Assembly: GCA_965224245.1 (NCBI GenBank)
Contig: OZ245046.1
Location: forward strand, 3,232,001-3,296,000
Direction of reading: 5' to 3'
DNA from: Candidatus Eiseniibacteriota bacterium
GTDB lineage: Bacteria; Eisenbacteria; RBG-16-71-46; CAZAMP01
Length of the DNA stretch: 64,000 bases
How positions within the stretch are numbered: the stretch's first letter is position 1; the number at the start of each line of letters is the position of its first letter. Below, piece after piece: positions 5,754-63,433 of the stretch. A model generated the notes under the pieces. That model saw only the letters and a program-made list of their open reading frames with translations, did not search any database and was not told the origin of the DNA. The position numbers and the translations under genes were made by a program.

Positions 5754-6692
5754 ATGCCACGGAAATCGAAGCGCCAGCGGTACAAGGAGCTCCTCGCCAA
5801 CCAGCGGGAGTACTACAGCATCGGTCACGCGGCCGAGCTGTCGGGGATCTCGTCGGATACGATTCGCATCTGGGAGCGACGGTACGGACGCCCGGTGCCC
5901 GTCCGTCTGGACTCGGGCCACCGGCGATACACGGTCGACCAGATTCGCTGGCTCCGGCAGGTCGCCGAGGCGTTGTCGCGGGGCTATCGCCCGTCCAAGG
6001 TCGTGCACCTCTCCCCGTCGGAGATGATGCGCCTCCTGGAGGACACGTCGACCCTGTCCACACCCGACGCCAACGTGGAGCGCGTCATCGAGCTGGCGCT
6101 GGAGCAGGACTCGGTCAAGCTCCGGGGGTTCCTGAGCTCGGCCCAGGTCGAGCTGGGGGCGAGGCGCTTCCTGATGGAGCTCCTCGGCCCCACGCTCGAG
6201 CGCATCGGACGCGCCTGGGCGGATGGCGAGATCCACATCCGGCACGAGCACTTCGTCTCGGAGATCATCGACGACGAGCTCCGCCGCCTGCGCACGTCGC
6301 TGTCACCCAACACCGAGGGGCCGGCGATCTGCTTCGCCTCGCTGAGCGGCGAGCTGCACGGCCTCGGCATCCAGATCGCCGCCCTGTGCGCGGTGATGTC
6401 CGGAGCCCGCGCGCACGTCCTCGGAATCGACGTGCCCATCTACGAGGTCGACGCGGCCGCCCGGGACGTCGGCGCGACCGCGGTGGGCATCAGCGTGTCG
6501 CTGGCCACCGGCGGCGTGGAGACCGACCGTCACATCGCCGAGCTGCGCACGCGGCTCCCCGATTCGGTTCGCGTGATCGTCGGCGGACACGGCGCGCGCG
6601 GCGTGCGCCGCGGTCCGCGGGACGTGGAGTACGTCGAGTCCCTGGAGGCGTTCGAGGAGGTCGTCCGGGCGATGGTGCGGAAGACGGCCTGA
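5754..6692 (+). CDS. MerR-family regulator with cobalamin-binding domain (CarH/LitR-like)
   Basis: MerR HTH (IRIWERRYG, GHRRY), W-x9-EH motif (WADGEIHIRHEH), ExHxxG (ELHGLG), VGG Rossmann tail. Confidence 0.88.
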   Translation: MPRKSKRQRYKELLANQREYYSIGHAAELSGISSDTIRIWERRYGRPVPVRLDSGHRRYTVDQIRWLRQVAEALSRGYRPSKVVHLSPSEMMRLLEDTSTLSTPDANVERVIELALEQDSVKLRGFLSSAQVELGARRFLMELLGPTLERIGRAWADGEIHIRHEHFVSEIIDDELRRLRTSLSPNTEGPAICFASLSGELHGLGIQIAALCAVMSGARAHVLGIDVPIYEVDAAARDVGATAVGISVSLATGGVETDRHIAELRTRLPDSVRVIVGGHGARGVRRGPRDVEYVESLEAFEEVVRAMVRKTA

Positions 6693-6713
6693 GCCGGCCG
6701 GCGCGCGGTGCGC

Positions 6714-7139
6714 TCAGTCCCCGTCGCGAGCGCCGCCCGCGTCACGGGCGCGCACGAGGATCGCCCGCCACTCGTCGGGGATCGGGACCCCGCGACCCGT
6801 GACCGGCTGCATTGAGGCGTGCACGATCCGGACCTCGGCCGCCGGGCGTCCATCGGCCTGCGTCATGTCGTAACGCATCGTGTAGCTCTTCTCCCCCACC
6901 GCCTCGACCGCGACGTCGATCGTGACGCGGTCTCCCAGACGCAGCGGCGCGCGGAAGTCCGCCTCGGCGTGAACGACGGGCGTCATGACGTCGACGCGAG
7001 AGAGGTCCGGGGACAGAGACATGCCCACCGCGTCCAGCCACTCCTCGTACACGTCGTGGGCCAGCTCGAAGAACCGCTCGAAGAAGACGACGCCGGCGGC
7101 GTCGGTGTGATGGAGTCGGATGGTCCGGGTCACCGTCAT
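6714..7139 (-). CDS. Hotdog-fold acyl-CoA thioesterase, probable DHNA-CoA thioesterase
   Basis: HTDAAGVVFF 4-HBT motif, ADFRAPLRLGD; close to men operon. Confidence 0.8.
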   Translation of the reverse strand: MTVTRTIRLHHTDAAGVVFFERFFELAHDVYEEWLDAVGMSLSPDLSRVDVMTPVVHAEADFRAPLRLGDRVTIDVAVEAVGEKSYTMRYDMTQADGRPAAEVRIVHASMQPVTGRGVPIPDEWRAILVRARDAGGARDGD

Positions 7140-7141
7140 CG

Positions 7142-7471
7142 TCAGCTCACCACGCGGTAGATGGCCCGGTGCGCGACGAAGCGCCCCTGGAAGCGCTCGA
7201 TGCCCTCGGCGCGCATCCGGGCGGCGTGCTCGTCGAAGTACGTCTGGAGGGCGGCGCGATCGCGCACGCGGTACTGAACCGTCCACGACACGTGGTCGCT
7301 CTCGCCGGGGTCGGCGTCCGGCTCGCGTTCGAGCCACTCGGCCCCGAGGAACCCGTCGATCTCCAGCATCTCGGCCACGTGGCCCCGGAGCCACGTGCGG
7401 TAGTCGGCCGCGATGGCGGCGTCAACCTCGAGTGTCACCTGGTAGACGATGCGCGAGTCGTGATCGGTCAT
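7142..7471 (-). CDS. DUF4286-like small protein
   Basis: IVYQVTLEVD, WLRGHVAEML..GF, VQYRV..L..YFDEHA.RMRAEG..RF. Confidence 0.7.
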   Translation of the reverse strand: MTDHDSRIVYQVTLEVDAAIAADYRTWLRGHVAEMLEIDGFLGAEWLEREPDADPGESDHVSWTVQYRVRDRAALQTYFDEHAARMRAEGIERFQGRFVAHRAIYRVVS

Positions 7472-7543
7472 GCTCGGCTCCTTCCCGGTGGTGCGTCCGT
7501 CGTCACGTCCGTTCCCTCGTGAGCGCCCGGCGCGAGCGCGCGG

Positions 7544-9199
7544 CTAGTTGCCGACCAGTCGGTCCACGAGGACGACGAGTGATGCGATCTGCACGACCAG
7601 CGCCGTGGCCTCGCGCGCGCGCTGCCAGGTGCTGATCTTCTCCTTCGTGGGCACGTGGATCACCGTGCCCGAGCGCACGTCGTCGTCGTCGCGCGCCTTG
7701 CGGAGCGGTCCTCCGAAGAACGGCGCCACGCGCGTGCGACCCTTGTCGGCGTCCTTGTCGTAGCCGCCGGCCAACGCCACGTAGTCGCCGACGTCTCGTC
7801 CCGGCACGTAGGCGTAGGATCCGGGCGCCCGCACCCGACCGATCACCCGCACCTCGGCGCGATCCTCGGGAATCTGGACGACGTCCCCGTCGTACAGCAT
7901 CACGTCCTCGTCGTCGTCTCGGCCCATCAGCGCGGCACGAAAGTCGCTGGCGACGAGGATGGAATCCACCGCGGTCTGCAGCTCGACGTCGTCGCGGTTC
8001 TCGAGAATGTCCGAGAGCTCCACCGACGGCGGCGTCGGCTTCTCACGCGGGCGCATGACGTGCCCCTGGTCGAGGTTCGCGCGCACGGTCACGCCGCCGG
8101 CCATCGCGACGACGGTCGACAGCGGCGTGCCCGCCGGTGAGATCGGATAGCGCCCCGGACGCTGGACGGCCCCGTAGACGAAGACCTCGGCGCCCCGGTG
8201 CCAGTCGGGGATCGGGCGGACGTAGACCCGATCCCCGTCCAGGAGGATCGGGTCGGACGCGTCGTCGCCGCCGGGCACGTACGCGAACGTTCGCTCCTCG
8301 GTCTCACGGTGCGAGACGAATCGCGAGAGCACGACACGATGGGAGTCGGCCGCCGCGGTGAACCCGCCGACGGCGCTCAGCATCTCGCTGAGTCGTTCGC
8401 CGGGCAACGGCTCGTAGTTGCCGGGATGCTGAACCTCACCGGACAGCAGGACCGACTCGGTCCGGGGTACGACCTCGATCACGGCTCCGTCGACGACGTG
8501 CGGGTTCAAGTCGAGTCGTCCGGTCAGCACGAAGCCGACGATGTCGGCCTCCACGGTGCCGGACGCGGTGTGCATGCGCACGCGGCGACCCGACGCGCCC
8601 TCGGTGAGCCCTCCGGCCATGGCCACCGCCTCGGACACGCGGGTGGTGGCGGTGGCCGGGTAGCTCCCCGGGAACATCACCGACGTCGCTCCGACCACGT
8701 GCACCTTGAACTGACGCATCCGGGCCAGAAGCACGTCGATGGTGACGTTCGAGTAGATTTCTCCCGCGCGGCCGCGGATGGTCTCCCGCGTGGACTCCAG
8801 CGTGCGGTGCGCGACGTCGACGACACCCACGTTCGGGACGAAGACGCGTCCCTCGGGATCGATCGGGATCTCCTCGAGCACCTCGGCCGCGCCCGACACC
8901 ACGAACAGCAGCACGTCTCCGGGTCCGACCCGGTACTCGTGCGGGTCCACGGGACCTTCCGGCAGCTCCACCGCGCGCTCGGCCACGGCCCGCGCCTCGG
9001 CCTCCCGGCGCCGGCGCTCGGCGCCGTCGGGATCGCGATCCCGGTCGCGATCGTCGTCGGTGGCGAACATGCGATGGCGGAGGCCGGCGTCACCTGTGGC
9101 GTTGCCGTCGGTGAGCTGCGCCGACGCCGCGCTCGCGACTGCGAGCACGCCGACGAGCGCGAGGACGAGCGCGTTCAGGCGATCCTCCGCGGATGACAT
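7544..9199 (-). CDS. Polysaccharide export protein with SLBB repeats (Wza/KpsD-like)
   Basis: Signal peptide, YRVGPGD Poly_export motif, repeated G.V..PG.Y ... AGG SLBB units. Confidence 0.88.
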   Translation of the reverse strand: MSSAEDRLNALVLALVGVLAVASAASAQLTDGNATGDAGLRHRMFATDDDRDRDRDPDGAERRRREAEARAVAERAVELPEGPVDPHEYRVGPGDVLLFVVSGAAEVLEEIPIDPEGRVFVPNVGVVDVAHRTLESTRETIRGRAGEIYSNVTIDVLLARMRQFKVHVVGATSVMFPGSYPATATTRVSEAVAMAGGLTEGASGRRVRMHTASGTVEADIVGFVLTGRLDLNPHVVDGAVIEVVPRTESVLLSGEVQHPGNYEPLPGERLSEMLSAVGGFTAAADSHRVVLSRFVSHRETEERTFAYVPGGDDASDPILLDGDRVYVRPIPDWHRGAEVFVYGAVQRPGRYPISPAGTPLSTVVAMAGGVTVRANLDQGHVMRPREKPTPPSVELSDILENRDDVELQTAVDSILVASDFRAALMGRDDDEDVMLYDGDVVQIPEDRAEVRVIGRVRAPGSYAYVPGRDVGDYVALAGGYDKDADKGRTRVAPFFGGPLRKARDDDDVRSGTVIHVPTKEKISTWQRAREATALVVQIASLVVLVDRLVGN

Positions 9200-54308: not shown

Positions 54309-56753
54309 ATGAGCGGCCCGCCGTTCGAGCCGTTGCCGGCCGCGGCGTGGTCGGTGCCGTGTGATCGCACGGCCCCCCGGGAGTTCGTTCCCAATCACGA
54401 CAAGTCCGAGGTCGTGGACCCGCCCTACGCCGGGGCACCGCTGGGCGGTCTCGGCGCGGGCACGGTGACCCGGAGCCACCGCGGCGACTTCGTGCGCTGG
54501 CATCTCGCACCCGGCGTGCACCGCTATCACCGACTGCCCGCGTGCGCCCAGGCCATCGCCGTGCATCGGGACGACGACACCCGCGCGTGCATCGACGCGT
54601 TCGCGCTGGGCACGCCTCCGGACGACGGCACCCTGGGAACGTGGTCGTTCCGCCACGCCGGCTTCCGGTACGCTGCGCTGTATCCCCGCTCGTGGTTCGA
54701 CGGAACGGCCGCCGGCGGGCGGATCCGGTGGAGGCTGACCCAGCTCTCGCCGGTCCTCCCCGGCAACTACGTCGAGACCAGCTATCCGGTCGGCGTCTTT
54801 CGCGTCACGTTCCGGAACGACGGAGACGACGCCATGATCGTGTCGTTCCTGACGTCCTGGGAGAACCTCGCCCCGCCGAGCCCCGGGGTCGCGACCGGCG
54901 GCCGCCCGACGCACGCGGTCGCGCCGGAGGACGGCATCCTCTGGCTCGGACGCGCCTCGGAGGACCCCAACGACTCGGGCGCGGTCGCGATGGCCGTGAC
55001 CGGAGGCGACGCCTTCGCGATCGCGGACTTCCCCGCCGACGGCGATGGACACGCGGTCTGGAGCGGCCTCACGGGCGTCGGCCCGGATCGGGAGCCGGGC
55101 CATCGGGAGCCGGGCGGGGACACCACCGACCATCGGCCCGGTGGGGTCCGGCGCGCGGGGGCCATCGGGGCCCGGATCCGGCTCGCCCCCGGGGAGCGCC
55201 GCGACGTCACGTGCGCGATCGCCTGGCACTTCCCGGTGATGCGGTTCGGCGCCGGCCGCGCCTGGTACCGGCGTCACACCGCGTTCGTGGGCCGACACGT
55301 CGGTGGCGGACCGTCCGATCCGACCGACCCCGCCGTCCGCCTCGCCCGCGAGGCTCTGACGTCGGCCACGACGTGGATGACCGCGATCGCAGCCTGGCAA
55401 CGGCCGTATCTCGAGCGTCGCTCGCCCGAGCTGACCCGCGCGCTCTTCAACACGCTCTACATCCTCGCCGACGGCGGAACGATCTGGCAGTCGGGTCCGG
55501 AGGCCACCGAGCACGCCGGCGACGGTGCGCCGGCGGGCGCGGCGCCCGCGGTGCCGGGGTGTCGCGACGTGGGACGCTTCGCGGTGCTGGAGTGCTTCAC
55601 GTACCCCTACTACGCGACGCTCGACGTGCGCTACTACGGCTCCCTGCCGCTCCTGTTCTTCTGGCCGGAGCTCGAGCGGCAGGTGCTGCTCCAGTTCGCC
55701 CAGGCCGCCCTCGCCGAGGACGTGGAGACGCGCGACATGGTCCACGTGGAGGAGCGCGCGGTCCGCAAGCGCCGGGGAACGCTCCCGCACGACCTCGGCC
55801 GCGCGGACGAGGACCCCTGGGTGAAGATCAACGCGTACGACGACATCGATCCGAATCGCTGGAAGGACCTCGGCTCCAAGTTCGTGCTCCTGATCGTTCG
55901 GTACATGGGGCGCGTCCGCTGGGAGGATCGGGGATTCCTCCGGGCCGTCTGGCCCGCGGTGGAGGCCGCGATGGCCCACCTGGCCTCGCAGGACCGCGAC
56001 GGCGACGGGCTGCCCGACAACGAAGGCATCCCCGATCAGACCTTCGACAAGTGGCCGATGACCGGGCTCAGCGCCTACTGCGGAGGGCTGGCGCTCGCCG
56101 CCCTCCGGGCCGCCGAGACGCTGGCCGAGTGGTGCGGCCGGCCGGGCCAGGCTCGCGAGTACGAGCGCTGGCGACGCCGCGCGACCGGCCGGTTCGTGAG
56201 CGCGCTGTGGCGCGGGGACCATCTCGCGTACGACGCGGCACCCGAGAACGCCGAGATGGTCATGTGCGGGCAGCTCTCCGGCGACTGGGCGTGCGCGCTC
56301 GCGGGCTTTCCCACGGTGCTCTCGGAGACCCAGACGCGCGACACGCTGGACACGATCTGGCGATCCTGCAGGGCCGAGCGGAACGGCGTGCTCTGGGGAC
56401 TCCACAACGGCGCGGCATACGTCGCGCCCGACGGCCAGCGGGTCGGACCCGCTCCCGACAATCGACACGCGAAGGAGATCTGGTCCGGCATCAACTACGC
56501 CGTCGTGTCCCAGCTCGTCCTGGCGGGCCTCGACGATCCGGCGGCCCGTCTGGTCGAGGCGCTCGATCGCGTGATCGGTGTGGACTGTCCGTTCGCGTTC
56601 GGCGTGCCCGAGGCGTGGGAGCCTGACGGTCGATTCCGCGGCGCGCTCTACGTGCGACCGCTGGCGGTGTGGGCCGTCGAGGAGGCGCTCCGGCGCCGGC
56701 GGCCCGACGACGGCGCGCCGCCGTTCCTCGTGGGACCGGAGGCCTCCGGATGA
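54309..56753 (+). CDS. GH116 beta-glucosidase / GBA2 glucosylceramidase-like
   Basis: GAPLGGLGAG, ETSYPV, ALFNTLY.L.DGG, LECFTYPYY.TLDV.YY, PHDLG, WKDL.SKF, PDQTFD.W, EIWSG, PEA, YVRPLAVW. Confidence 0.92.
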   Translation: MSGPPFEPLPAAAWSVPCDRTAPREFVPNHDKSEVVDPPYAGAPLGGLGAGTVTRSHRGDFVRWHLAPGVHRYHRLPACAQAIAVHRDDDTRACIDAFALGTPPDDGTLGTWSFRHAGFRYAALYPRSWFDGTAAGGRIRWRLTQLSPVLPGNYVETSYPVGVFRVTFRNDGDDAMIVSFLTSWENLAPPSPGVATGGRPTHAVAPEDGILWLGRASEDPNDSGAVAMAVTGGDAFAIADFPADGDGHAVWSGLTGVGPDREPGHREPGGDTTDHRPGGVRRAGAIGARIRLAPGERRDVTCAIAWHFPVMRFGAGRAWYRRHTAFVGRHVGGGPSDPTDPAVRLAREALTSATTWMTAIAAWQRPYLERRSPELTRALFNTLYILADGGTIWQSGPEATEHAGDGAPAGAAPAVPGCRDVGRFAVLECFTYPYYATLDVRYYGSLPLLFFWPELERQVLLQFAQAALAEDVETRDMVHVEERAVRKRRGTLPHDLGRADEDPWVKINAYDDIDPNRWKDLGSKFVLLIVRYMGRVRWEDRGFLRAVWPAVEAAMAHLASQDRDGDGLPDNEGIPDQTFDKWPMTGLSAYCGGLALAALRAAETLAEWCGRPGQAREYERWRRRATGRFVSALWRGDHLAYDAAPENAEMVMCGQLSGDWACALAGFPTVLSETQTRDTLDTIWRSCRAERNGVLWGLHNGAAYVAPDGQRVGPAPDNRHAKEIWSGINYAVVSQLVLAGLDDPAARLVEALDRVIGVDCPFAFGVPEAWEPDGRFRGALYVRPLAVWAVEEALRRRRPDDGAPPFLVGPEASG

Positions 56754-58027
56754 CCGCGTACCGGCGTGAGGACCGCGTCGACGTCGGCGCGCTGCGAGAC
56801 CGCGTGGCCGCGATGACCGGGGCACACTCGTCCGAAGTGCGCGTCGTGCGCGCACCCTATCGATTCTGTCCGCTCGGGGCCCACGTCGACCACCAGGGCG
56901 GACCGGTCACCGGTGTGGCGCTCGACCGCGCGACGCACCTCGCCTACGTCGGCTCCGAGGATCTGCGCGTGCGACTTCGCTCGGACGACGCGAGCGGCCT
57001 CGTCGACTTCGCGCTGGACGCCGTCCCCGACGCGATCGCCGGCGACTGGGGAAACTACGTGCGCGGCGCCGCGCGGGCGCTCGGGGCCGAACGACCGCTC
57101 TCGCGGGGGCTCAGCGGGATCGTCGCCGGCGAGATGTCACCCGGCGGCGTCAGCTCGTCGGCGGCGCTCGGCGTGGCCTGCCTCCTCGCGCTCGAGGACG
57201 TGAATGGCCTCGACGTGTCCGTGGTCGAGAACGTCGAGCTGGACCGGCGGATCGAGAACGACTACCTGGGGCTGGCGAACGGGATCCTCGATCCGTCGAT
57301 CATCCTCCGTGCGGTCGAGGGCGCGCTCGTGCACCTCGACTGCGGCACCGGCGCGTTCGAGGTGGTGCGCTCGCCGGTCGCGAACGACCTGGCGCTGGTG
57401 GCGGTGTACTCGGGCATCACGGTCGCGCTGGCGGGAACCGGCTACAACCGCCGGGTCGCCGAGTGCCGCGATGCCGCCGCCGCGTTGCTCGCGATGGGGG
57501 GCGATCTCGGCCCTGCGTCCGGAGCCGGCACGGTGGCCGGGCACGCGAGCGACGCCTCCTCGGCACCCACCCTCGGCGACGTACCGCGCGCACACTTCGA
57601 CGCCCACGGGAACGCGCTCCCCGACCCGCTCCGCAAGCGAGCGACCCACTACTTCGGCGAGGTCGAGCGGGTGCGCCTGGGCGTGGAGGCCTGGCGGCGG
57701 GGCGATCTGGCCGAGCTCGGACGGCTGGTCACCGCGACCGGAGAGAGCTCGGTGACCCACTACGAGTGCGGGTCCCCCGAGCTCACCGCGCTGTTCCGGC
57801 AGCTCGTGGAGACCGACGGCGTCATCGGCGCGCGGTTCTCGGGAGCGGGCTTCCGGGGCTATGCGATGGCGCTGGTGCGCCCCGCCGACGCCGAGGCGAT
57901 CGGCGAATGCGCCGCTTCCGCGTTCGCCGAGGCCCATCCCGACCTCGCCCCGCGCGTGCACTGGATGGTGTGCCGCTCGGCCCGCGCGGCCGGCCTGGTC
58001 GACGACGCGGGTCGAGCTCTCTCCTGA
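56750..58027 (+). CDS. GHMP sugar kinase, galacturonokinase-like
   Basis: APYRFCPLGAHVDHQGG, GVSSSAA, NGILD, YECG, GARFSGAGFRG; ATGA coupling to GH116. Confidence 0.85.
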   Translation: MTAYRREDRVDVGALRDRVAAMTGAHSSEVRVVRAPYRFCPLGAHVDHQGGPVTGVALDRATHLAYVGSEDLRVRLRSDDASGLVDFALDAVPDAIAGDWGNYVRGAARALGAERPLSRGLSGIVAGEMSPGGVSSSAALGVACLLALEDVNGLDVSVVENVELDRRIENDYLGLANGILDPSIILRAVEGALVHLDCGTGAFEVVRSPVANDLALVAVYSGITVALAGTGYNRRVAECRDAAAALLAMGGDLGPASGAGTVAGHASDASSAPTLGDVPRAHFDAHGNALPDPLRKRATHYFGEVERVRLGVEAWRRGDLAELGRLVTATGESSVTHYECGSPELTALFRQLVETDGVIGARFSGAGFRGYAMALVRPADAEAIGECAASAFAEAHPDLAPRVHWMVCRSARAAGLVDDAGRALS

Positions 58028-58037
58028 CGGGCCGCCC

Positions 58038-59705
58038 TCAGCGGAACGGGCGGTGCTCGCGAGAGAAGTACTCGCGCGTCATCTCCACCGTCCTCGGCAA
58101 GAGGAGCAGGATCGCGATCAGGTTCGGGAACGCCATCATTCCCAGCGCGGCGTCCCCGAGCTGCCACACGAACTCCAGCGCCGCCACCGCCCCGATGAAA
58201 TGCATGGCGCAGAAGAGCAGCCGGTACGGCAGCACGGCGCCGTCCCCGAACAGGTAGACCGCGCAGCGATCGCCGTAGTACGACCAGCTGATCGCCGTGG
58301 ACAGCCCGAACAGGAACACGGCCAGCGTCACGATGTAGCGCCCATACGTGCCGGCGATGGGTGCGAGGCCGCGCTCGAAGCCCCACGCGGTGAGGGGCGC
58401 GCCGTTCTGTACCATGTTGCCCGAGAGCCAGACGTCGTCCAGCCCGGTGAAGTCGATCACTCCGGCCTCGACGGTCACGGTCCCCGTCCACGGAGCCCCG
58501 CCGGACTCCAGCCGTGCCTCCTCCACCGTGGCGTGGTTGCGGACGAACGTCGCGCCCTCGACCCGGCCGTCGACGACGCTCAGCGTTCCGTCGAAGAGAT
58601 CGGCGTCGGCGACCTCGCCCTCGGCCTGGACCCCCGCGCCCGCGTCCACGACGGTGATGTCGGACTGCGTGGACAGCACGACGGACTCGGCCCGCCGCTC
58701 GTGCCAGACGTCGGTGGTCAGGATCACGAGCCCCGTGATCGAGCAGATGATGAGGGTGTCGATCAGGGGCCCCATCATGGCCACGACGCCTTCTCGCACG
58801 GGCTCGTCGGTCTTGGCGGCGGCGTGGGCGATGGGGGCCGACCCCTGGCCGGACTCGTTCGAGAAGAGCCCCCGCTTGACGCCCCAGGTGAGCATGAAGA
58901 TGAAGCTGCCGCCGGCGAACCCTCCGATCTGGGCCGCCGGCTCGAACGCCGACGACACGATCGCGGCCAGCGTGCCCGGGATGTGCTCGATGTTCAGGAT
59001 CAGCACGATCAGGCCACCCGTCACGTACGTGGCGGCCATCCAGGGCGCCAGCTTGCTCGTGACCGCCCCGATGCGCTTGATGCCGCCCAGGATGACCGAG
59101 GCCACCAGCGCCGTCATGATGCTGCCGGTCAGAACCGTCGGAAGCCCCAGATCCGCACGCATCGCGTCGGCGACTGTGTTCGCCTGGATGCCGTTCCCCG
59201 AGCCGAAGCTGGACAGGATCGCGCAGAACGCGAACAGGACCGCGAGCGGCTTCCAGGCCGGCCCGAGGCCGCGCTCGATGTAGTACATGGGCCCGCCGGC
59301 CGCCGTCCCGTCCGGTCGGATCACCCGGTACTTCATGGCGAGGGTGCACTCGGAGAACTTGAGCGCCATGCCGAACACCGCGGTGACCCACATCCAGAAC
59401 AGCGCACCGGGTCCACCGTAGTGAATGGCGGTGGCCACGCCGCCGATGTTGCCGATCCCGACGGTCGCCGAGAGCGCCGTGGACAGGGCCTGGAAGTGAG
59501 AGATGTCCCCTTCGTGAGAGGGGTCGTCGTACTTGCCGCGTGTGACGTCGAGGCTGTGCTCGAGGCGGCGCACCTGTATGAAGCGGAGCGCCACCGTCGT
59601 GATCAGCCCGGTGACCAGCAGCACCGCCACCATCAACGGGAACGTCTCCGGACGCGCCCAGATCCAATCGGCCAGATTCGTCGCGATTCCGGTCAGTGCG
59701 TCCAT
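58038..59705 (-). CDS. Alanine/glycine:cation symporter (AgcS family)
   Basis: SATVGIGNI.GVA.AI..GGPGALFWMW, GGPMYY, RGLFSNESGQGS, WSYYG, PNLIA. Confidence 0.95.
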   Translation of the reverse strand: MDALTGIATNLADWIWARPETFPLMVAVLLVTGLITTVALRFIQVRRLEHSLDVTRGKYDDPSHEGDISHFQALSTALSATVGIGNIGGVATAIHYGGPGALFWMWVTAVFGMALKFSECTLAMKYRVIRPDGTAAGGPMYYIERGLGPAWKPLAVLFAFCAILSSFGSGNGIQANTVADAMRADLGLPTVLTGSIMTALVASVILGGIKRIGAVTSKLAPWMAATYVTGGLIVLILNIEHIPGTLAAIVSSAFEPAAQIGGFAGGSFIFMLTWGVKRGLFSNESGQGSAPIAHAAAKTDEPVREGVVAMMGPLIDTLIICSITGLVILTTDVWHERRAESVVLSTQSDITVVDAGAGVQAEGEVADADLFDGTLSVVDGRVEGATFVRNHATVEEARLESGGAPWTGTVTVEAGVIDFTGLDDVWLSGNMVQNGAPLTAWGFERGLAPIAGTYGRYIVTLAVFLFGLSTAISWSYYGDRCAVYLFGDGAVLPYRLLFCAMHFIGAVAALEFVWQLGDAALGMMAFPNLIAILLLLPRTVEMTREYFSREHRPFR

Positions 59706-59889: not shown

Positions 59890-60080
59890 TCGACAACTCC
59901 GCACACCGCTCCGCTCGACCCATCCGATCGGGAGCGCCGCCGTCGTCGACGGCGAGCCCGTCATCGTATTCGCGCCGTTCGTACCGACCAGCCGTCGCAC
60001 CGGCACGACTGGCCGTGCCCGATGTCGATTGACGCGACATCTCATCGTCTCGATGCGCGTCACCCAAAAGGAGGTTCGTA

Positions 60081-60389
60081 ATGCGGTCCCTCGTGTCCCC
60101 CTTCGCGCGGCTCGGCGCGCGAGGCTGCGCGATCGCCGTGGCGTTCGCGCTCGGCGTCTCGGCCACACAGGTGGCCGTGGCCATCCCAGAAGACCCGTAT
60201 CCGATGGTCACGATCTCGAGCGACTTCATCCCGATGGGCGACGACTGGCAGGAGGACTACATCTCGCACGAGACGACCTCCGACCCGACGGTGTCGTCCA
60301 CCGAACGATCGGCCGACACCGATCCGATCGCGGACGAACGTTCCGTGCTCCAGCTCATGCTCACCACGTTGCGTCTCTTCATCCGATAG
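60081..60389 (+). CDS. Small secreted protein / peptide precursor
   Basis: AAGGAGG RBS; Sec signal ending AVA; acidic mature part; stop 18 nt before the TPR-sigma54 activator. Confidence 0.72.
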   Translation: MRSLVSPFARLGARGCAIAVAFALGVSATQVAVAIPEDPYPMVTISSDFIPMGDDWQEDYISHETTSDPTVSSTERSADTDPIADERSVLQLMLTTLRLFIR

Positions 60390-60407
60390 CCAGGGAGCCG
60401 AAACGAC

Positions 60408-62669
60408 ATGTACGATTCATTCGAACATACGCACGTCGATGGCGGCGCCCCGGAGGAGGTCCGACTCGCACTGGCGTACCTGAACGTCGTCGGAAGCGAC
60501 GACACGCCGGCCTCCGATGATGCGACCGAGCACGACGACACGCCGGAGATCGACGAGGACGAGCTGATCCGACGCGCCCGCATCGCGATTCGCTGGCTCC
60601 ATCACCAGGGTCGGGTCGACGAGGCCCGACAGCGGCTCACGGGGCTGATCGCCCGGTGCTGTCCCGACGCGACCCGGTCCTGCCGGCTGGCCGCCACGCT
60701 GCACCGGTTGCTGGGCGTGACATACCGTCTGGATGGACGACCGATGCTGGCCGCCGACGAGCTGATGAAGGCGAAGGTCCTGTACGAGTTCGCGCACGAC
60801 CGCCACGGTGTCGCGATGTCGTTGAACGCGCTGGGAAGCCTCTACGGAAGCCTCTACCAGTGGACGATCGCCGAGGAGTGCTTCACCGCCGCACGCCAGC
60901 TCGGTCGCGAGATCGGCATGGTGTCGATTCAGCGGAAGGCCAGCCGGAACCTCGAGTTCGCCTACCTGCGCCAGGGGCGTCTCGTCGAGGTGAGTGCGCT
61001 CTGGCACGAGAGCCGCGCGCTGCCCCCGATGGACGCCGTCGACGATCCCTACCCGCTGTCTGGAGCGATCACGCTGGCGCGTTTGATGCGGACGCGCGGA
61101 TTCCCCGCCTTCGGGCGCCGGGTGGCCGAGCGCGCGCTCGAGGGGGCCGAGCAGGGCGGGTTTCGACGGACCGAGGCGTACGTGCTTCACGTGGTGGGGC
61201 AGTGCGTACTCGACATGGGGGACGTCGACCGCGCGATCGCGCTGTTCAAGCGCGAGCTCCAGCTCGGGCTCGACATGGCGCCCGTGTCCGACGTCGTCTC
61301 GGAGGCCTACCTGGGCCTGGCCCGCTCGTACGCGGCCCGTGGCGACACGACGCGGACCCGGCGCGCGATCGAGGAAGGGCTCCGCATCTCGGACGAGATC
61401 CAGGACGATCAGACCCGGGTGGGATTGCTCTCCGTCCGCGGCATGCTGGCGTTCAACGACGGTGACGTCGCCGCGGCCGATCGCGACCTCCGCGAGGCCC
61501 GCTCGATCGCCGCGCGGTGTGACTTCCAGCTCGACCTGGCGCTCTGTCTCGAGACCGAGGCGTTCCTGCGGCGCGAGGCCGGCGAGGCACCGCTGGCCGA
61601 CTCCCTGATGGCGGACGCCGCGTACGCCTATCGCCGCATCGGCGCTCCCCGGCTGGCTCGCCAGCTCGAACGAGGCCGACGCGCCCTCTCACGGGGCATC
61701 CCTCATCGCCGCCGCGTCGTCGCGGCCGATGCGCGAGCCGAGCGCTGGGAGGCGTTCGGACTGGTCACCCGGGACAAGACGTTCCTGGACGAGCTGGAGC
61801 GCACCGCCCTCATCGCCGAGACTCCGTTGCCGATCCTGATCTGCGGCGAGAGCGGCGTGGGCAAGGAGCTCGTGGCCGGGGCGATACACGAGCTGAGCGG
61901 CCGCCAGGGCGTCCTCGTCGACATCAACTGCCCGGCCATCCCCGAGACGATGCTCGAGAGCGAGCTGTTCGGTTGCCGGCGCGGGGCGTTCACCGGCGCC
62001 GAGGACCGGCCCGGGCTCGTGTCGTCCGCCGACGGCGGCACGCTGTTCCTGGACGAGATCGGCGACATGCCGCTGGGGCTCCAGTCGAAGCTCCTCAGGT
62101 TCCTCGAGACGTCGCGCTACCGCCGCGTCGGCGGCCGCACGCCGCATTCGGTGAACACCCGGCTGGTGAGTGCGACCAACTCGAACCTCGAGGACCGCGT
62201 CCGTAGCGGCGCCTTCCGGGACGATCTCTTTCACCGGATCGCCGGAGTGGTGGTCACGATCCCCGCACTCAGGGATCGACCGACGGACATCGATGTGTTG
62301 ACCGATCACTTCGTGCAGACCTCGGGCGGGAATCCCGCGGCGCTCTCGGCGTCCGTCCGGAGCGCGCTGCGCGGATACGCGTGGCCGGGCAACGTGCGCG
62401 AGCTGAAGCACGTGATCCAGCAGATGGTGTGGAGTGCGTCCGGTCCGGTGGAAATCGGTCTCGACCTCGTGCCCGAGCGCATCCGAACGCGGGTGTGCTC
62501 GCCCCCCTCCGATCCCCTCGATCATGAGACGCTCACGTCGACCTTGGTCGACACGCGCGGCAGTGTTGCCGAGTCCGCGCGTCGTCTCGGCCTGAGCCGC
62601 CAGCAGATCTACCGCCGGATCGAGGAGATGGGCCTCGATCTATCGGAGCTGCGGGGGGCCGGGTCCTAG
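60408..62669 (+). CDS. TPR-domain sigma54 enhancer-binding protein (AAA+ and Fis HTH)
   Basis: About 430-aa TPR region; [30 protein letters not shown]-terminal HTH; no receiver domain. Confidence 0.92.
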
Positions 62670-62753: not shown

Positions 62754-62782
62754 TTGACAGCGTTCCGGGCGCCTTCGAGAAT
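62754..62782 (+). promoter_or_regulatory. sigma70-type promoter for HD-like gene
   Basis: TTGACA-N17-GAGAAT. Confidence 0.5.
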
Positions 62783-62890: not shown

Positions 62891-63433
62891 ATGCGGGACG
62901 CGGTCAACCGCCTCTGGCCCGAGCTGGAATGGATCACCGACGAGAAGCTCCGTGAGCAGGTCGCGCTGACCTGGCAGCGCGCCCTGGAGCGGAGTCCCCT
63001 CACACCCGAGGACCTGGAGCGCATCCCGTTCACACTCCTGGTGCCCGACTGCCCCGCGACCTTCATGGAGCACAAGCGCTGCGTCGTTCACGTGGCCCGC
63101 GACGCGGCGCGGGCCATGGAGACGTTCCTGGGGCGCGCGCTCCCCATCGACCACGACGTCGTGATCGCGGGCGCGATCCTCGCCGACGTCGGAAAGCTGC
63201 TCGAGTACGAGATGGTCGACGGAGAGGCCCGGCAGAGCACGAGAGGTCGCTACGTGCGGCACCCCTTCACCGGGGTCGCGCTGGCCATGGAGTGCGGCGT
63301 GCCGGACGCCGTCTGCCACATCATCGCCGCGCACGCGGCCGAAGGTGATCTCGTCGCGCGCACGACGGAGGCGTACGTCGTCCACCACGCGGACTTCATG
63401 ACGTTCCTGCCGTTCAAGAACCTGAAGCGGTAG
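62891..63433 (+). CDS. HD/HDIG-superfamily protein
   Basis: AGGAGG RBS; EH...V, AILADVGKLLEY, RHPFTG, HIIAAH, VHHAD. Confidence 0.8.
   Translation: MRDAVNRLWPELEWITDEKLREQVALTWQRALERSPLTPEDLERIPFTLLVPDCPATFMEHKRCVVHVARDAARAMETFLGRALPIDHDVVIAGAILADVGKLLEYEMVDGEARQSTRGRYVRHPFTGVALAMECGVPDAVCHIIAAHAAEGDLVARTTEAYVVHHADFMTFLPFKNLKR

Follow-up and report, generated by a model that had tools for sequence, protein, structure and literature searches.

A stretch of 64,000 nucleotides from a Candidatus Eiseniibacteriota genome (contig OZ245046.1; hereafter the window) carries two adjacent genes: a small open reading frame (ORF) for a predicted exported protein and, directly behind it, the gene for a sigma-54 activator whose sensor is built of tetratricopeptide repeats (TPR). 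We found that this pair and its relatives form a conserved cassette of a small exported ORF and a TPR regulator, and that the window cassette is a divergent member of a cassette found throughout the class. The cassette is conserved and undescribed. Whether the small protein acts on the TPR sensor is a question on which we are evenly divided. Below, L, G and f number the loci, genomes and families; G000 is the genome of the window, G001 is the only other genome of its family (f1), and the class comprises the relatives labelled Candidatus Eisenbacteria. The cassette contains the following features.

60068–60074, forward strand: AAGGAGG ribosome-binding site, 6 nt before the ATG of the small ORF, read from the sequence.
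60081–60389, forward strand: small ORF, predicted exported protein of 102 aa, from the ORF list; G+C at third codon positions (GC3) of 0.88.
60081–60182, forward strand: predicted Sec signal peptide, residues 1–34, with cleavage after AVA, from the n-region, hydrophobic core and AxA site (heuristic only).
60234–60260, forward strand: acidic Trp motif MGDDWQEDY, the window counterpart of the class-wide G-D-P-D, aligned with GDPWENE of a paralogue.
60318–60341, forward strand: second, degenerate motif copy TDPIADER, aligned with the second GDPWENER repeat of the paralogue.
60345–60386, forward strand: hydrophobic tail with basic residues, VLQLMLTTLRLFIR, at the extreme C-terminus, from the translation.
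60387–60389, forward strand: TAG stop codon of the small ORF, read from the sequence.
60393–60397, forward strand: GGGAG, the ribosome site of the activator within the 18-nt spacer, read from the sequence.
60408–62669, forward strand: sigma-54 enhancer-binding protein with TPR sensor, 753 aa, from Pfam, the paralogues and the G001 orthologue.
60555–61757, forward strand: TPR superhelix, residues about 50–450, 20 helices (H50–449), from AlphaFold2, Foldseek and the class-wide profile.
61764–62492, forward strand: AAA+ sigma-54 interaction domain and lid, from Pfam.
61845–61868, forward strand: Walker A GESGVGKE, residues 480–487, from motif reading.
61983–62000, forward strand: GAFTGA, residues 526–531, from motif reading.
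62043–62066, forward strand: Walker B LFLDEIGD, residues 546–553, from motif reading.
62523–62627, forward strand: Fis-type HTH_8 DNA-binding domain, residues 706–740, from Pfam (E = 7e-6).

The window has a G+C content of 70%, and chance long ORFs are abundant. The small ORF is nevertheless more than a chance ORF of GC-rich DNA, because it has a coding-type GC pattern that the overlapping frames lack: G+C at its three codon positions is 0.60, 0.50 and 0.88, against 0.72, 0.49 and 0.88 in the activator, and none of the alternative frames at this place follows its neighbours in this respect. The leader, as read from the translation, contains three arginines, a hydrophobic core of 12 residues and the sequence AVA|IP, and these features, read by eye and by a hydrophobicity rule, predict that the small protein is likely to be exported via Sec. 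The mature part is acidic, with 14 Asp or Glu against 4 Lys or Arg, and contains IPEDPYP, MGDDWQEDY and TDPIADER. Its stop codon lies 18 nt from the activator ATG (60408) on the same strand. Thus, the preliminary description of this DNA, which listed a 102-codon ORF with a strong ribosome-binding site, a Sec-type leader, an acidic core, a hydrophobic tail and an 18-nt gap, agrees with the sequence and its translation on every count. The two genes also share one reading frame, with one TAG and five sense codons between them. Read-through to a fusion protein was considered and rejected: a shared frame is seen in 23 of 58 pairs, about the one-third that chance alone would give, and other pairs overlap out of frame.

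The preliminary description proposed looking for a conserved signal-peptide ORF beside homologues that combine TPR with a Sigma54_activat domain. We used a profile of eight TPR modules (A1, with the window as one row), which matched 156 of 206 class genomes at E ≤ 1e-25, most of them in frames of 740–890 aa; the window TPR matched at E = 5.5e-167, the window itself being among the eight rows. We inspected 62 loci from 56 genomes and 12 families, namely the 20 best A1 matches (including the window and G001), 40 loci hand-picked from about 150 to spread over families (open frames of 734–926 aa), and two paralogues from the genome of the window. Two loci (L129 and L154) come without upstream DNA, which leaves 60 that can be assessed. 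A leader-bearing ORF of 75–126 aa lies on the same strand just upstream of the TPR regulator in 58 of these 60 loci, as had been anticipated. The small ORFs end between about 100 nt before and about 330 nt inside the open frame of the regulator, whose true start is uncertain. The exceptions are L112, where the copy is convergent, and L157. If L123 (genome G053), which is absent from alignments A3 and A4, is left out, the count becomes 57 of 59.

The small proteins share an organization more than a sequence. A motif of the form G-D-P-(D/T) is near-universal, 15–40 residues past the predicted cleavage site, and a hydrophobic-basic tail stands at the very end. GDP occurs in 50 of the 57 family members, and at least two G[DE]P motifs in 10. 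Under a fixed rule that calls for a leader, the motif within residues 26–85, and a tail with at least 10 hydrophobic and at least 2 basic residues, 51 of 57 members qualified, and VLQLMLTTLRLFIR passes the tail part of the rule. Among 600 random long coding-type ORFs of the window genome used as a control, the same detector returned a leader-like ORF in 33 cases, the motif in addition in 2, and motif and tail in 1. The converse search gave a similar picture: in five whole genomes, the small-ORF profile gave 11 matches at E ≤ 0.01, of which 9 sit immediately in front of a match to the TPR profile, and the two that lie elsewhere are the weakest. The profile finds 89 proteins, all unnamed or annotated as "hypothetical", one of which is labelled Candidatus Eisenbacteria. 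The nearest ESM Atlas clusters of the small ORF are likewise unnamed and come mostly from Candidatus Eiseniibacteriota. These labels fit the suggestion, made before the origin of the DNA was given, that the host is an FCB-like diderm. Pfam and NCBIfam at E ≤ 1 hold no family for the small ORFs, apart from one chance-level FlgD_ig match.

The surroundings of the cassette differ between lineages, with cysS upstream in f9 and f17 and a sodium:alanine symporter gene in the window. The regulators differ as well. Paralogues of f8 that lack both GAFTGA and Walker A (L135, L139, L141 and L142) are still preceded by a small ORF, and at two loci of relatives a GAF domain stands between the TPR and ATPase modules:

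L190:784–3876 and L190:3982–4300, reverse strand: TPR-GAF-Sigma54_activat-HTH_8 regulator of 1030 aa and its upstream small ORF.
L191:675–3779 and L191:3801–4160, reverse strand: TPR-GAF-Sigma54_activat-HTH_8 regulator of 1030 aa and its upstream small ORF.

The predicted exported small ORFs directly before these GAF-bearing regulators belong to the same family, with the motifs SGEPDVG and DGADPDD and tails rich in Trp and Arg. Because the small ORF also precedes the paralogues with a degenerate ATPase and those with an added GAF domain, the TPR domain is its constant partner, and the pairing is therefore tied to this domain and not to the output domain. The degenerate-ATPase branch of f8 has its own motif variant, GDPTGDD[LV]PSPTPKP, and f8 genomes carry several pairs with distinct motif flanks.

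We compared how fast the two products change. Across 12 locus pairs whose TPR domains are 80–97% identical, the small proteins share 59% identity against 87% for the sensors. By region, these close pairs show 62% identity in the leader, 55% before the motif, 92% in the motif, 46% in the linker and 63% in the tail. In the 77 pairs with TPR domains 60–80% identical, identity of the small proteins drops to 27%, with the motif at 83%. A short invariant element within a fast-changing exported protein would fit a linear recognition or processing site. Several further readings of these data were tried and dropped. Co-evolution, argued from nearest-neighbour agreement and from the regional identities, is inseparable from shared descent. 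An amphipathic helix does not hold as a family trait, as the hydrophobic moment of the last 18 residues is not above that of shuffles (median z 0.21; above 1 in 10 of 57); the window tail is moderately amphipathic by the same measure (z = 1.73). A PEP-CTERM or sortase-type signal was rejected on three grounds: the motif lies 30–70 residues before the tail, basic residues interrupt the tail, and there is no NCBIfam or Pfam match. The lipoprotein reading was rejected as well, since by eye most members have no lipobox Cys.

The activator had been described as an enhancer-binding protein with TPR as its only input domain, an intact GAFTGA and no REC, GAF or PAS domain, and this holds. Pfam places TPR families (TPR_12, TPR_2 and related) at residues 95–320, Sigma54_activat (PF00158, E = 4.8e-57) at 453–615 and AAA_lid_14 at 622–695; no REC, GAF or PAS match was found at E ≤ 0.01. 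Every sequence criterion of bacterial enhancer-binding proteins is present, that is, the AAA+ domain, Walker A and B, GAFTGA, a Fis-type helix-turn-helix (HTH) and sigma-54 in the genome. The AlphaFold2 model of residues 1–460, built from a 58-row alignment, consists of 21 helices and no other elements (pLDDT 88.9, pTM 0.85). In Foldseek, the best E-values went to the peptide-binding TPR domain of LGN/Pins (3e-8), and the best superpositions were with Rap of phage phi3T bound to its pheromone (8rsv_A; TM 0.60 by query and 0.74 by target, rmsd 4.6) and with MalT domain III (1hz4; 0.60 and 0.74). All of these best structural matches are ligand- or peptide-binding superhelices. A profile search of PDB sequences was headed by designed consensus TPRs, LGN/Pins, kinesin light chain and OGT, with AfsR (2.8e-15) and RapJ (1.9e-11) lower down, and some relatives give weak TPR_MalT matches in Pfam.

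The TPR module of the window is rare. Among 1.84 billion representative proteins, six including the query matched at E ≤ 1e-30, followed by generic TPR proteins; one of the six (P0005) is a paralogue from the same genome, and another (P0007) is a fragment of the G001 orthologue. For the genomic context of its closest relatives from metagenomes (P0003, P0004 and P0006), two scans of metagenome contigs recovered no relative, and a scan of genome contigs with the whole activator was dominated by generic AAA+ matches. A complex prediction that combined TPR residues 1–450 (alignment A4) with the mature small protein, residues 35–102 (A3), scored 0.00 against a mark of 0.32; it had no controls and an uncertain partner fold, and counts neither way.

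The window genome (6.94 Mb in 27 contigs) contains three TPR regulators of this family, and the window stretch is present in four DNA-type sequencing runs of one sample, with no RNA run among those listed. The other two members are as follows.

L112:5621–5908 (pair at about G000:C1 3299620–3302040, 3.6–6 kb past the window end), forward strand: 95-aa small ORF of the second cassette, with a leader, two GDPWENERL repeats and the tail AWLTLAIR.
L112:5983–8040, reverse strand: TPR regulator of the second cassette (P0005), 685 aa, with weak Sigma54_activat matches and no GAFTGA, Walker A or HTH_8.
L113, small ORF 5945–6226 and activator 6216–8423 (about G000:C1 4951940–4954420), forward strand: third cassette; the small protein has a leader, SDGEPWDDPEE and no hydrophobic tail.

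The small ORF of L112 is convergent to its regulator and lies 74 nt from the regulator stop; on the same strand downstream of this regulator are a response-regulator gene and a histidine-kinase gene. The activator of L113 is intact (735 aa), and its start is overlapped by its small ORF. At the orthologous locus in G001, a 111-codon ORF overlaps the activator start by 4 nt and encodes a leader, DDWGDPDDDQW and a hydrophobic tail. When compared singly, the window small ORF is collinear with that of L112 at 30% identity (E = 0.002) and shares 24% identity with its G001 counterpart (E = 0.019). The best match of the class-wide small-ORF profile in the window genome is the ORF beside L112 (E = 0.007 among 64,486 frames).

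We then considered the output. Sites matching TGGCACG-N4-TTGCW at 10 or more of 12 positions were sought on the same strand within 500 nt downstream of the activator, against a background of 323 such sites on both strands of the 6.94-Mb window genome. A sigma-54-type site was found in 30 of 53 assessable loci. Its distribution follows families: 18 of 19 loci in f9, 6 of 6 in f17, 2 of 2 in f18, 2 of 3 in f11, 1 of 3 in f10 and 1 of 2 in f3, against 0 of 11 in f8, 0 of 2 in f15, 0 of 1 in each of f2 and f4, and 0 of 3, including the window, in f1. Together, f9 and f17 have a downstream sigma-54-type promoter in 24 of 25 loci. This promoter reads TGGCACG-N4-CTGCT and lies 110–420 nt past the activator stop (loci L117–L134, L161–L172 and L175–L179; for example L176:765–1200). 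In f9, the sequence after the promoter is conserved without a conserved reading frame, with CGGATACGGGG near its start and AATACGCCCGGTCAACGAAGCCGGGAG later on, and is followed by a tRNA cluster, tuf, secE and nusG. No Rfam family matched this non-coding element, the only matches being the tRNAs further on. These observations suggest that the f9/f17 element is a candidate sigma-54-dependent non-coding RNA. Because a probable target promoter follows the activator, the cassette in these relatives looks like a complete input-output unit.

Upstream of the cassette, 56 of 58 pairs had no sigma-54-like site in the 350 nt that precede the small ORF, and the matches at L117 and L152 are isolated; the cassette is therefore not evidently autoregulated via sigma-54. 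In the window genome, the f9 element was not found by nhmmer. This genome encodes rpoN (Sigma54_DBD, E = 4.5e-65) and four SBP_bac_5 binding proteins of the Opp/Dpp type, so that sigma-54 output and peptide import are both possible as judged from gene content. It has 42 Sigma54_activat matches (about 35 strong) compared with only 39 promoter-like sites at 11/12, none of which could be assigned to the window activator. The repertoire of sigma-54 regulators is unusually large, and their promoters may deviate from the enterobacterial consensus.

From these results we propose the following mechanism. The two genes would form one operon-like cassette. The product of the first, about 100 aa long, would be exported by Sec with removal of its leader, and the mature part would present an acidic motif of the G-D-P-D type, in some cases twice, together with a linker that evolves fast and a hydrophobic-basic tail. 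The product of the second would be a cytoplasmic sigma-54 activator with a TPR superhelix of about 400 residues as its sole sensor. The small protein, or a fragment that bears the acidic motif, would serve as cognate ligand or regulator of this sensor. The AAA+ ring would then assemble and open sigma-54 promoters, or fail to do so, according to whether the TPR groove is occupied. The ligand might reach the groove by re-import of a processed peptide, as in the RRNPP systems, or by binding as a precursor that is not yet exported. Of this scheme, the codon bias of both genes, their domains, the conserved adjacency, the tie to the TPR domain and the Rap/MalT-like sensor shape are observed, and export, processing, binding and the direction of the effect are inferred. 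That the small protein acts as an extracellular signal which is imported again is a tentative idea that we think probably does not hold.

A number of observations weigh against a ligand-receptor relationship in general, or against its application to the window. The predicted compartments differ, with a cytoplasmic sensor and a small protein with a probably cleavable leader, and an RRNPP-like route needs passage of two membranes with no evident way back into the cytoplasm. The motif is near-invariant throughout the class, unlike strain-specific "pherotype" peptides. Nearest-neighbour agreement between sensor and small protein (27 of 57) is what shared descent alone would give, and co-inherited gene pairs are not independent observations. 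The likeness to Rap and MalT is in part generic to long TPR solenoids. For the window itself, no sequence relative of the small protein other than itself was found among 5.8 billion proteins, and six-frame searches of 60 related genomes gave none either (best foreign E = 0.016). The class-wide small-ORF profile, which was built without f1, fails to detect the window ORF, and its motif, GDDW, lacks the Pro of GDPD and so departs from the class pattern G-D-P-(D/T). Membership of the window ORF would therefore be argued from its position, its architecture, its weak similarity to the paralogue and the homology of its TPR partner. On the output side, there is no site at 10/12 or better within several kb downstream of the window activator, and a sigma-70-like promoter, TTGACA-N17-GAGAAT (62754–62782), precedes the next gene.

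Other explanations place the two products in a different relationship. Following the logic of FlgM and of secretion monitors, the precursor could bind the TPR domain in the cytoplasm and be removed by Sec export, such that the activator would read the state of export or of the envelope. This scheme needs no re-import and accounts for a cytoplasmic sensor paired with a Sec substrate. It is also in line with the conserved pairing with the TPR domain, with the unusually similar leader n-region in f9 (M-R/P-R-F-x-x-N-R-W-W) and with the higher identity of leader and tail (62% and 63%) than of the linker (46%) in close pairs, and PspA/PspF provides a precedent for an activator controlled in trans. 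However, conservation is highest in the acidic motif, within the exported part, and not in the leader or the tail, and Sec substrates normally leave the cytoplasm fast; we regard export coupling as unlikely. We find it similarly improbable that the products do not interact directly, the small protein being an envelope or extracellular protein that shares the activator transcript, or an output kept adjacent by inheritance. The different predicted compartments speak for such independence, and adjacency can persist by descent among kin that are not independent. Yet the adjacency has outlasted moves of the cassette to other surroundings (cysS as the neighbour in f9 and f17, the symporter gene in the window), its duplication into several paralogous pairs within a genome, the degeneration of the ATPase and the gain of a GAF domain; moreover, in the five genomes searched, the small-ORF family was not found apart from TPR genes, save for the two weak matches.

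The remaining explanations concern the ORF rather than its product. As a cis-acting upstream ORF of the SecM, VemP or MifM type, it would stall the ribosome with its C-terminal peptide and thereby set translation of the activator. An N-terminal leader combined with a conserved type of tail that ends 18 nt (window) to about 70 nt before the downstream start, or overlaps it, is what such an element would look like. But no tail column is invariant, the tail is 63% identical even in close pairs, and the copy at L112 is convergent to its TPR gene, so that action in cis is impossible there. Arrest peptides of the known kind show sharp conservation and lie in front of export-machinery genes, whereas the downstream gene here is a regulator. 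We therefore consider arrest very unlikely. Finally, the failure of searches to return a sequence relative would be expected of a frame that arose by chance in GC-rich DNA. We give this next to no credence, given a GC3 of 0.88 that follows the coding pattern of the genome, a strong ribosome site, counterparts at G001 and beside both in-genome paralogues, and a detector rate of 1 in 600 at control ORFs.

Cytoplasmic TPR receptors for peptides, encoded beside the exported precursors, are regarded as a distinguishing trait of Bacillota and of the mobile elements they carry, and the input domains known from sigma-54 activators are receiver, GAF, PAS, V4R and the like. Should the small protein indeed act on the sensor, the cassette would add a new class of input to sigma-54 control that is conserved through a whole uncultured lineage, and it would be a testable candidate for peptide-type signalling, or for monitoring of export or the envelope, in diderms. 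The relatives offer a downstream promoter that could serve as a reporter, an invariant motif that is short, and naturally occurring forms whose ATPase is dead or that have gained a GAF domain. Were the small protein to have no effect on the sensor, a reason for the near-obligate pairing would still have to be found.

The gene that follows the activator in the window is:

62891–63433, forward strand: gene after the activator, without a Pfam match at E ≤ 0.01, with GAGGAGG before its ATG at 62891.

The longer frame of this gene, from 62681, probably starts too early. On the other side (54309–59705) are genes for a GH116 beta-glucosidase-like protein, a galactokinase-like GHMP kinase and a sodium:alanine symporter, the last divergent from the small ORF; none of them is conserved beside the cassette in relatives.

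Our full-text literature searches returned no account of a sigma-54 activator that senses through TPR and is encoded beside a small exported protein, in line with the preliminary description, which knew of no earlier report of this logic; the supplementary architecture tables of PMC12316311 lay outside the coverage of these searches and might list it. A close parallel is with the RRNPP systems of Bacillota, phages and plasmids (Rap-Phr, NprR-NprX, PlcR-PapR and AimR-AimP), in which a cytoplasmic TPR receptor is likewise encoded beside a small precursor, predicted here to be exported by Sec, with a short conserved element that is sometimes duplicated. The TPR sensor also matches peptide-bound Rap in shape. 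According to PMC10075063, RRNPP pairs have a five-point signature: a propeptide of 10–100 aa (21–50 in validated cases), Sec export, a receptor of 250–500 aa, peptide-binding TPRs and genes that are direct neighbours. TPR content and adjacency (18 nt in the window; 58 of 60 loci) agree with this signature, Sec export is likely, and the sizes do not agree: the receptor has 753 aa (TPR module about 400) and the precursor 102 aa (75–126 in relatives). Other differences are the output through a sigma-54 AAA+ ring and a Fis-type HTH instead of an HTH or phosphatase protein, a host that is a predicted diderm of another phylum, a near-invariant motif, and a hydrophobic C-terminal tail that has no RRNPP counterpart. 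In sequence, Rap is no nearer than TPR proteins are in general (RapJ, E = 1.9e-11, ranks after LGN, kinesin light chain and OGT). The RRNPP-like peptide signalling proposed in the preliminary description is thus partly supported by the conserved adjacency and the Rap-like shape of the sensor and opposed by two of the five points and by the near-invariance of the motif. The cassette may work like an RRNPP pair, yet it is not a member of the RRNPP family.

Parts of the arrangement recur in other systems. MalT, the joint best structural match with Rap, also has a TPR-type superhelical sensor fused to a nucleotide-driven, oligomerising activator. It is a STAND NTPase with a LuxR-type HTH that acts at sigma-70 promoters; it has maltotriose as its ligand and is inhibited by cytoplasmic proteins, and it is not known to have an exported partner gene. 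PspF/PspA and FlgM/sigma-28 resemble the cassette in that a regulator is controlled in trans by a partner or by export of the partner, with no sequence relation; PspF has no sensor domain, and FlgM leaves through the flagellar export apparatus. SecM, VemP and MifM, also without sequence relation, share an N-terminal export signal and a C-terminal tail just upstream of the regulated gene, and differ in the sharp conservation of the arrest peptide and the export-machinery genes behind it, neither of which is seen here. On the output side, the parallel is LuxO-Qrr of Vibrio, in which a sigma-54 enhancer-binding protein with a cell-signalling input acts on an adjacent sigma-54 promoter, much as the f9 promoter would drive a conserved non-coding stretch. 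The window copy differs in having neither an adjacent sigma-54 promoter nor the non-coding element, and LuxO takes its input not from TPR but from a receiver domain that membrane kinases feed with phosphate. In its fullest form, the RRNPP-like reading would make the cassette a hybrid of Rap/Phr-type sensing and LuxO/Qrr-type output. This would be an RRNPP-like system rebuilt for a diderm, in which a short acidic G-D-P-D peptide, cut from the exported small protein and taken up again, acts through TPR and a sigma-54 AAA+ ring on the promoter of an adjacent non-coding RNA in most lineages, with the window as a diverged "dialect" and one of three pairs in its genome. We put this forward as a possible, if somewhat doubtful, model that joins sensing of the one known kind to output of the other.

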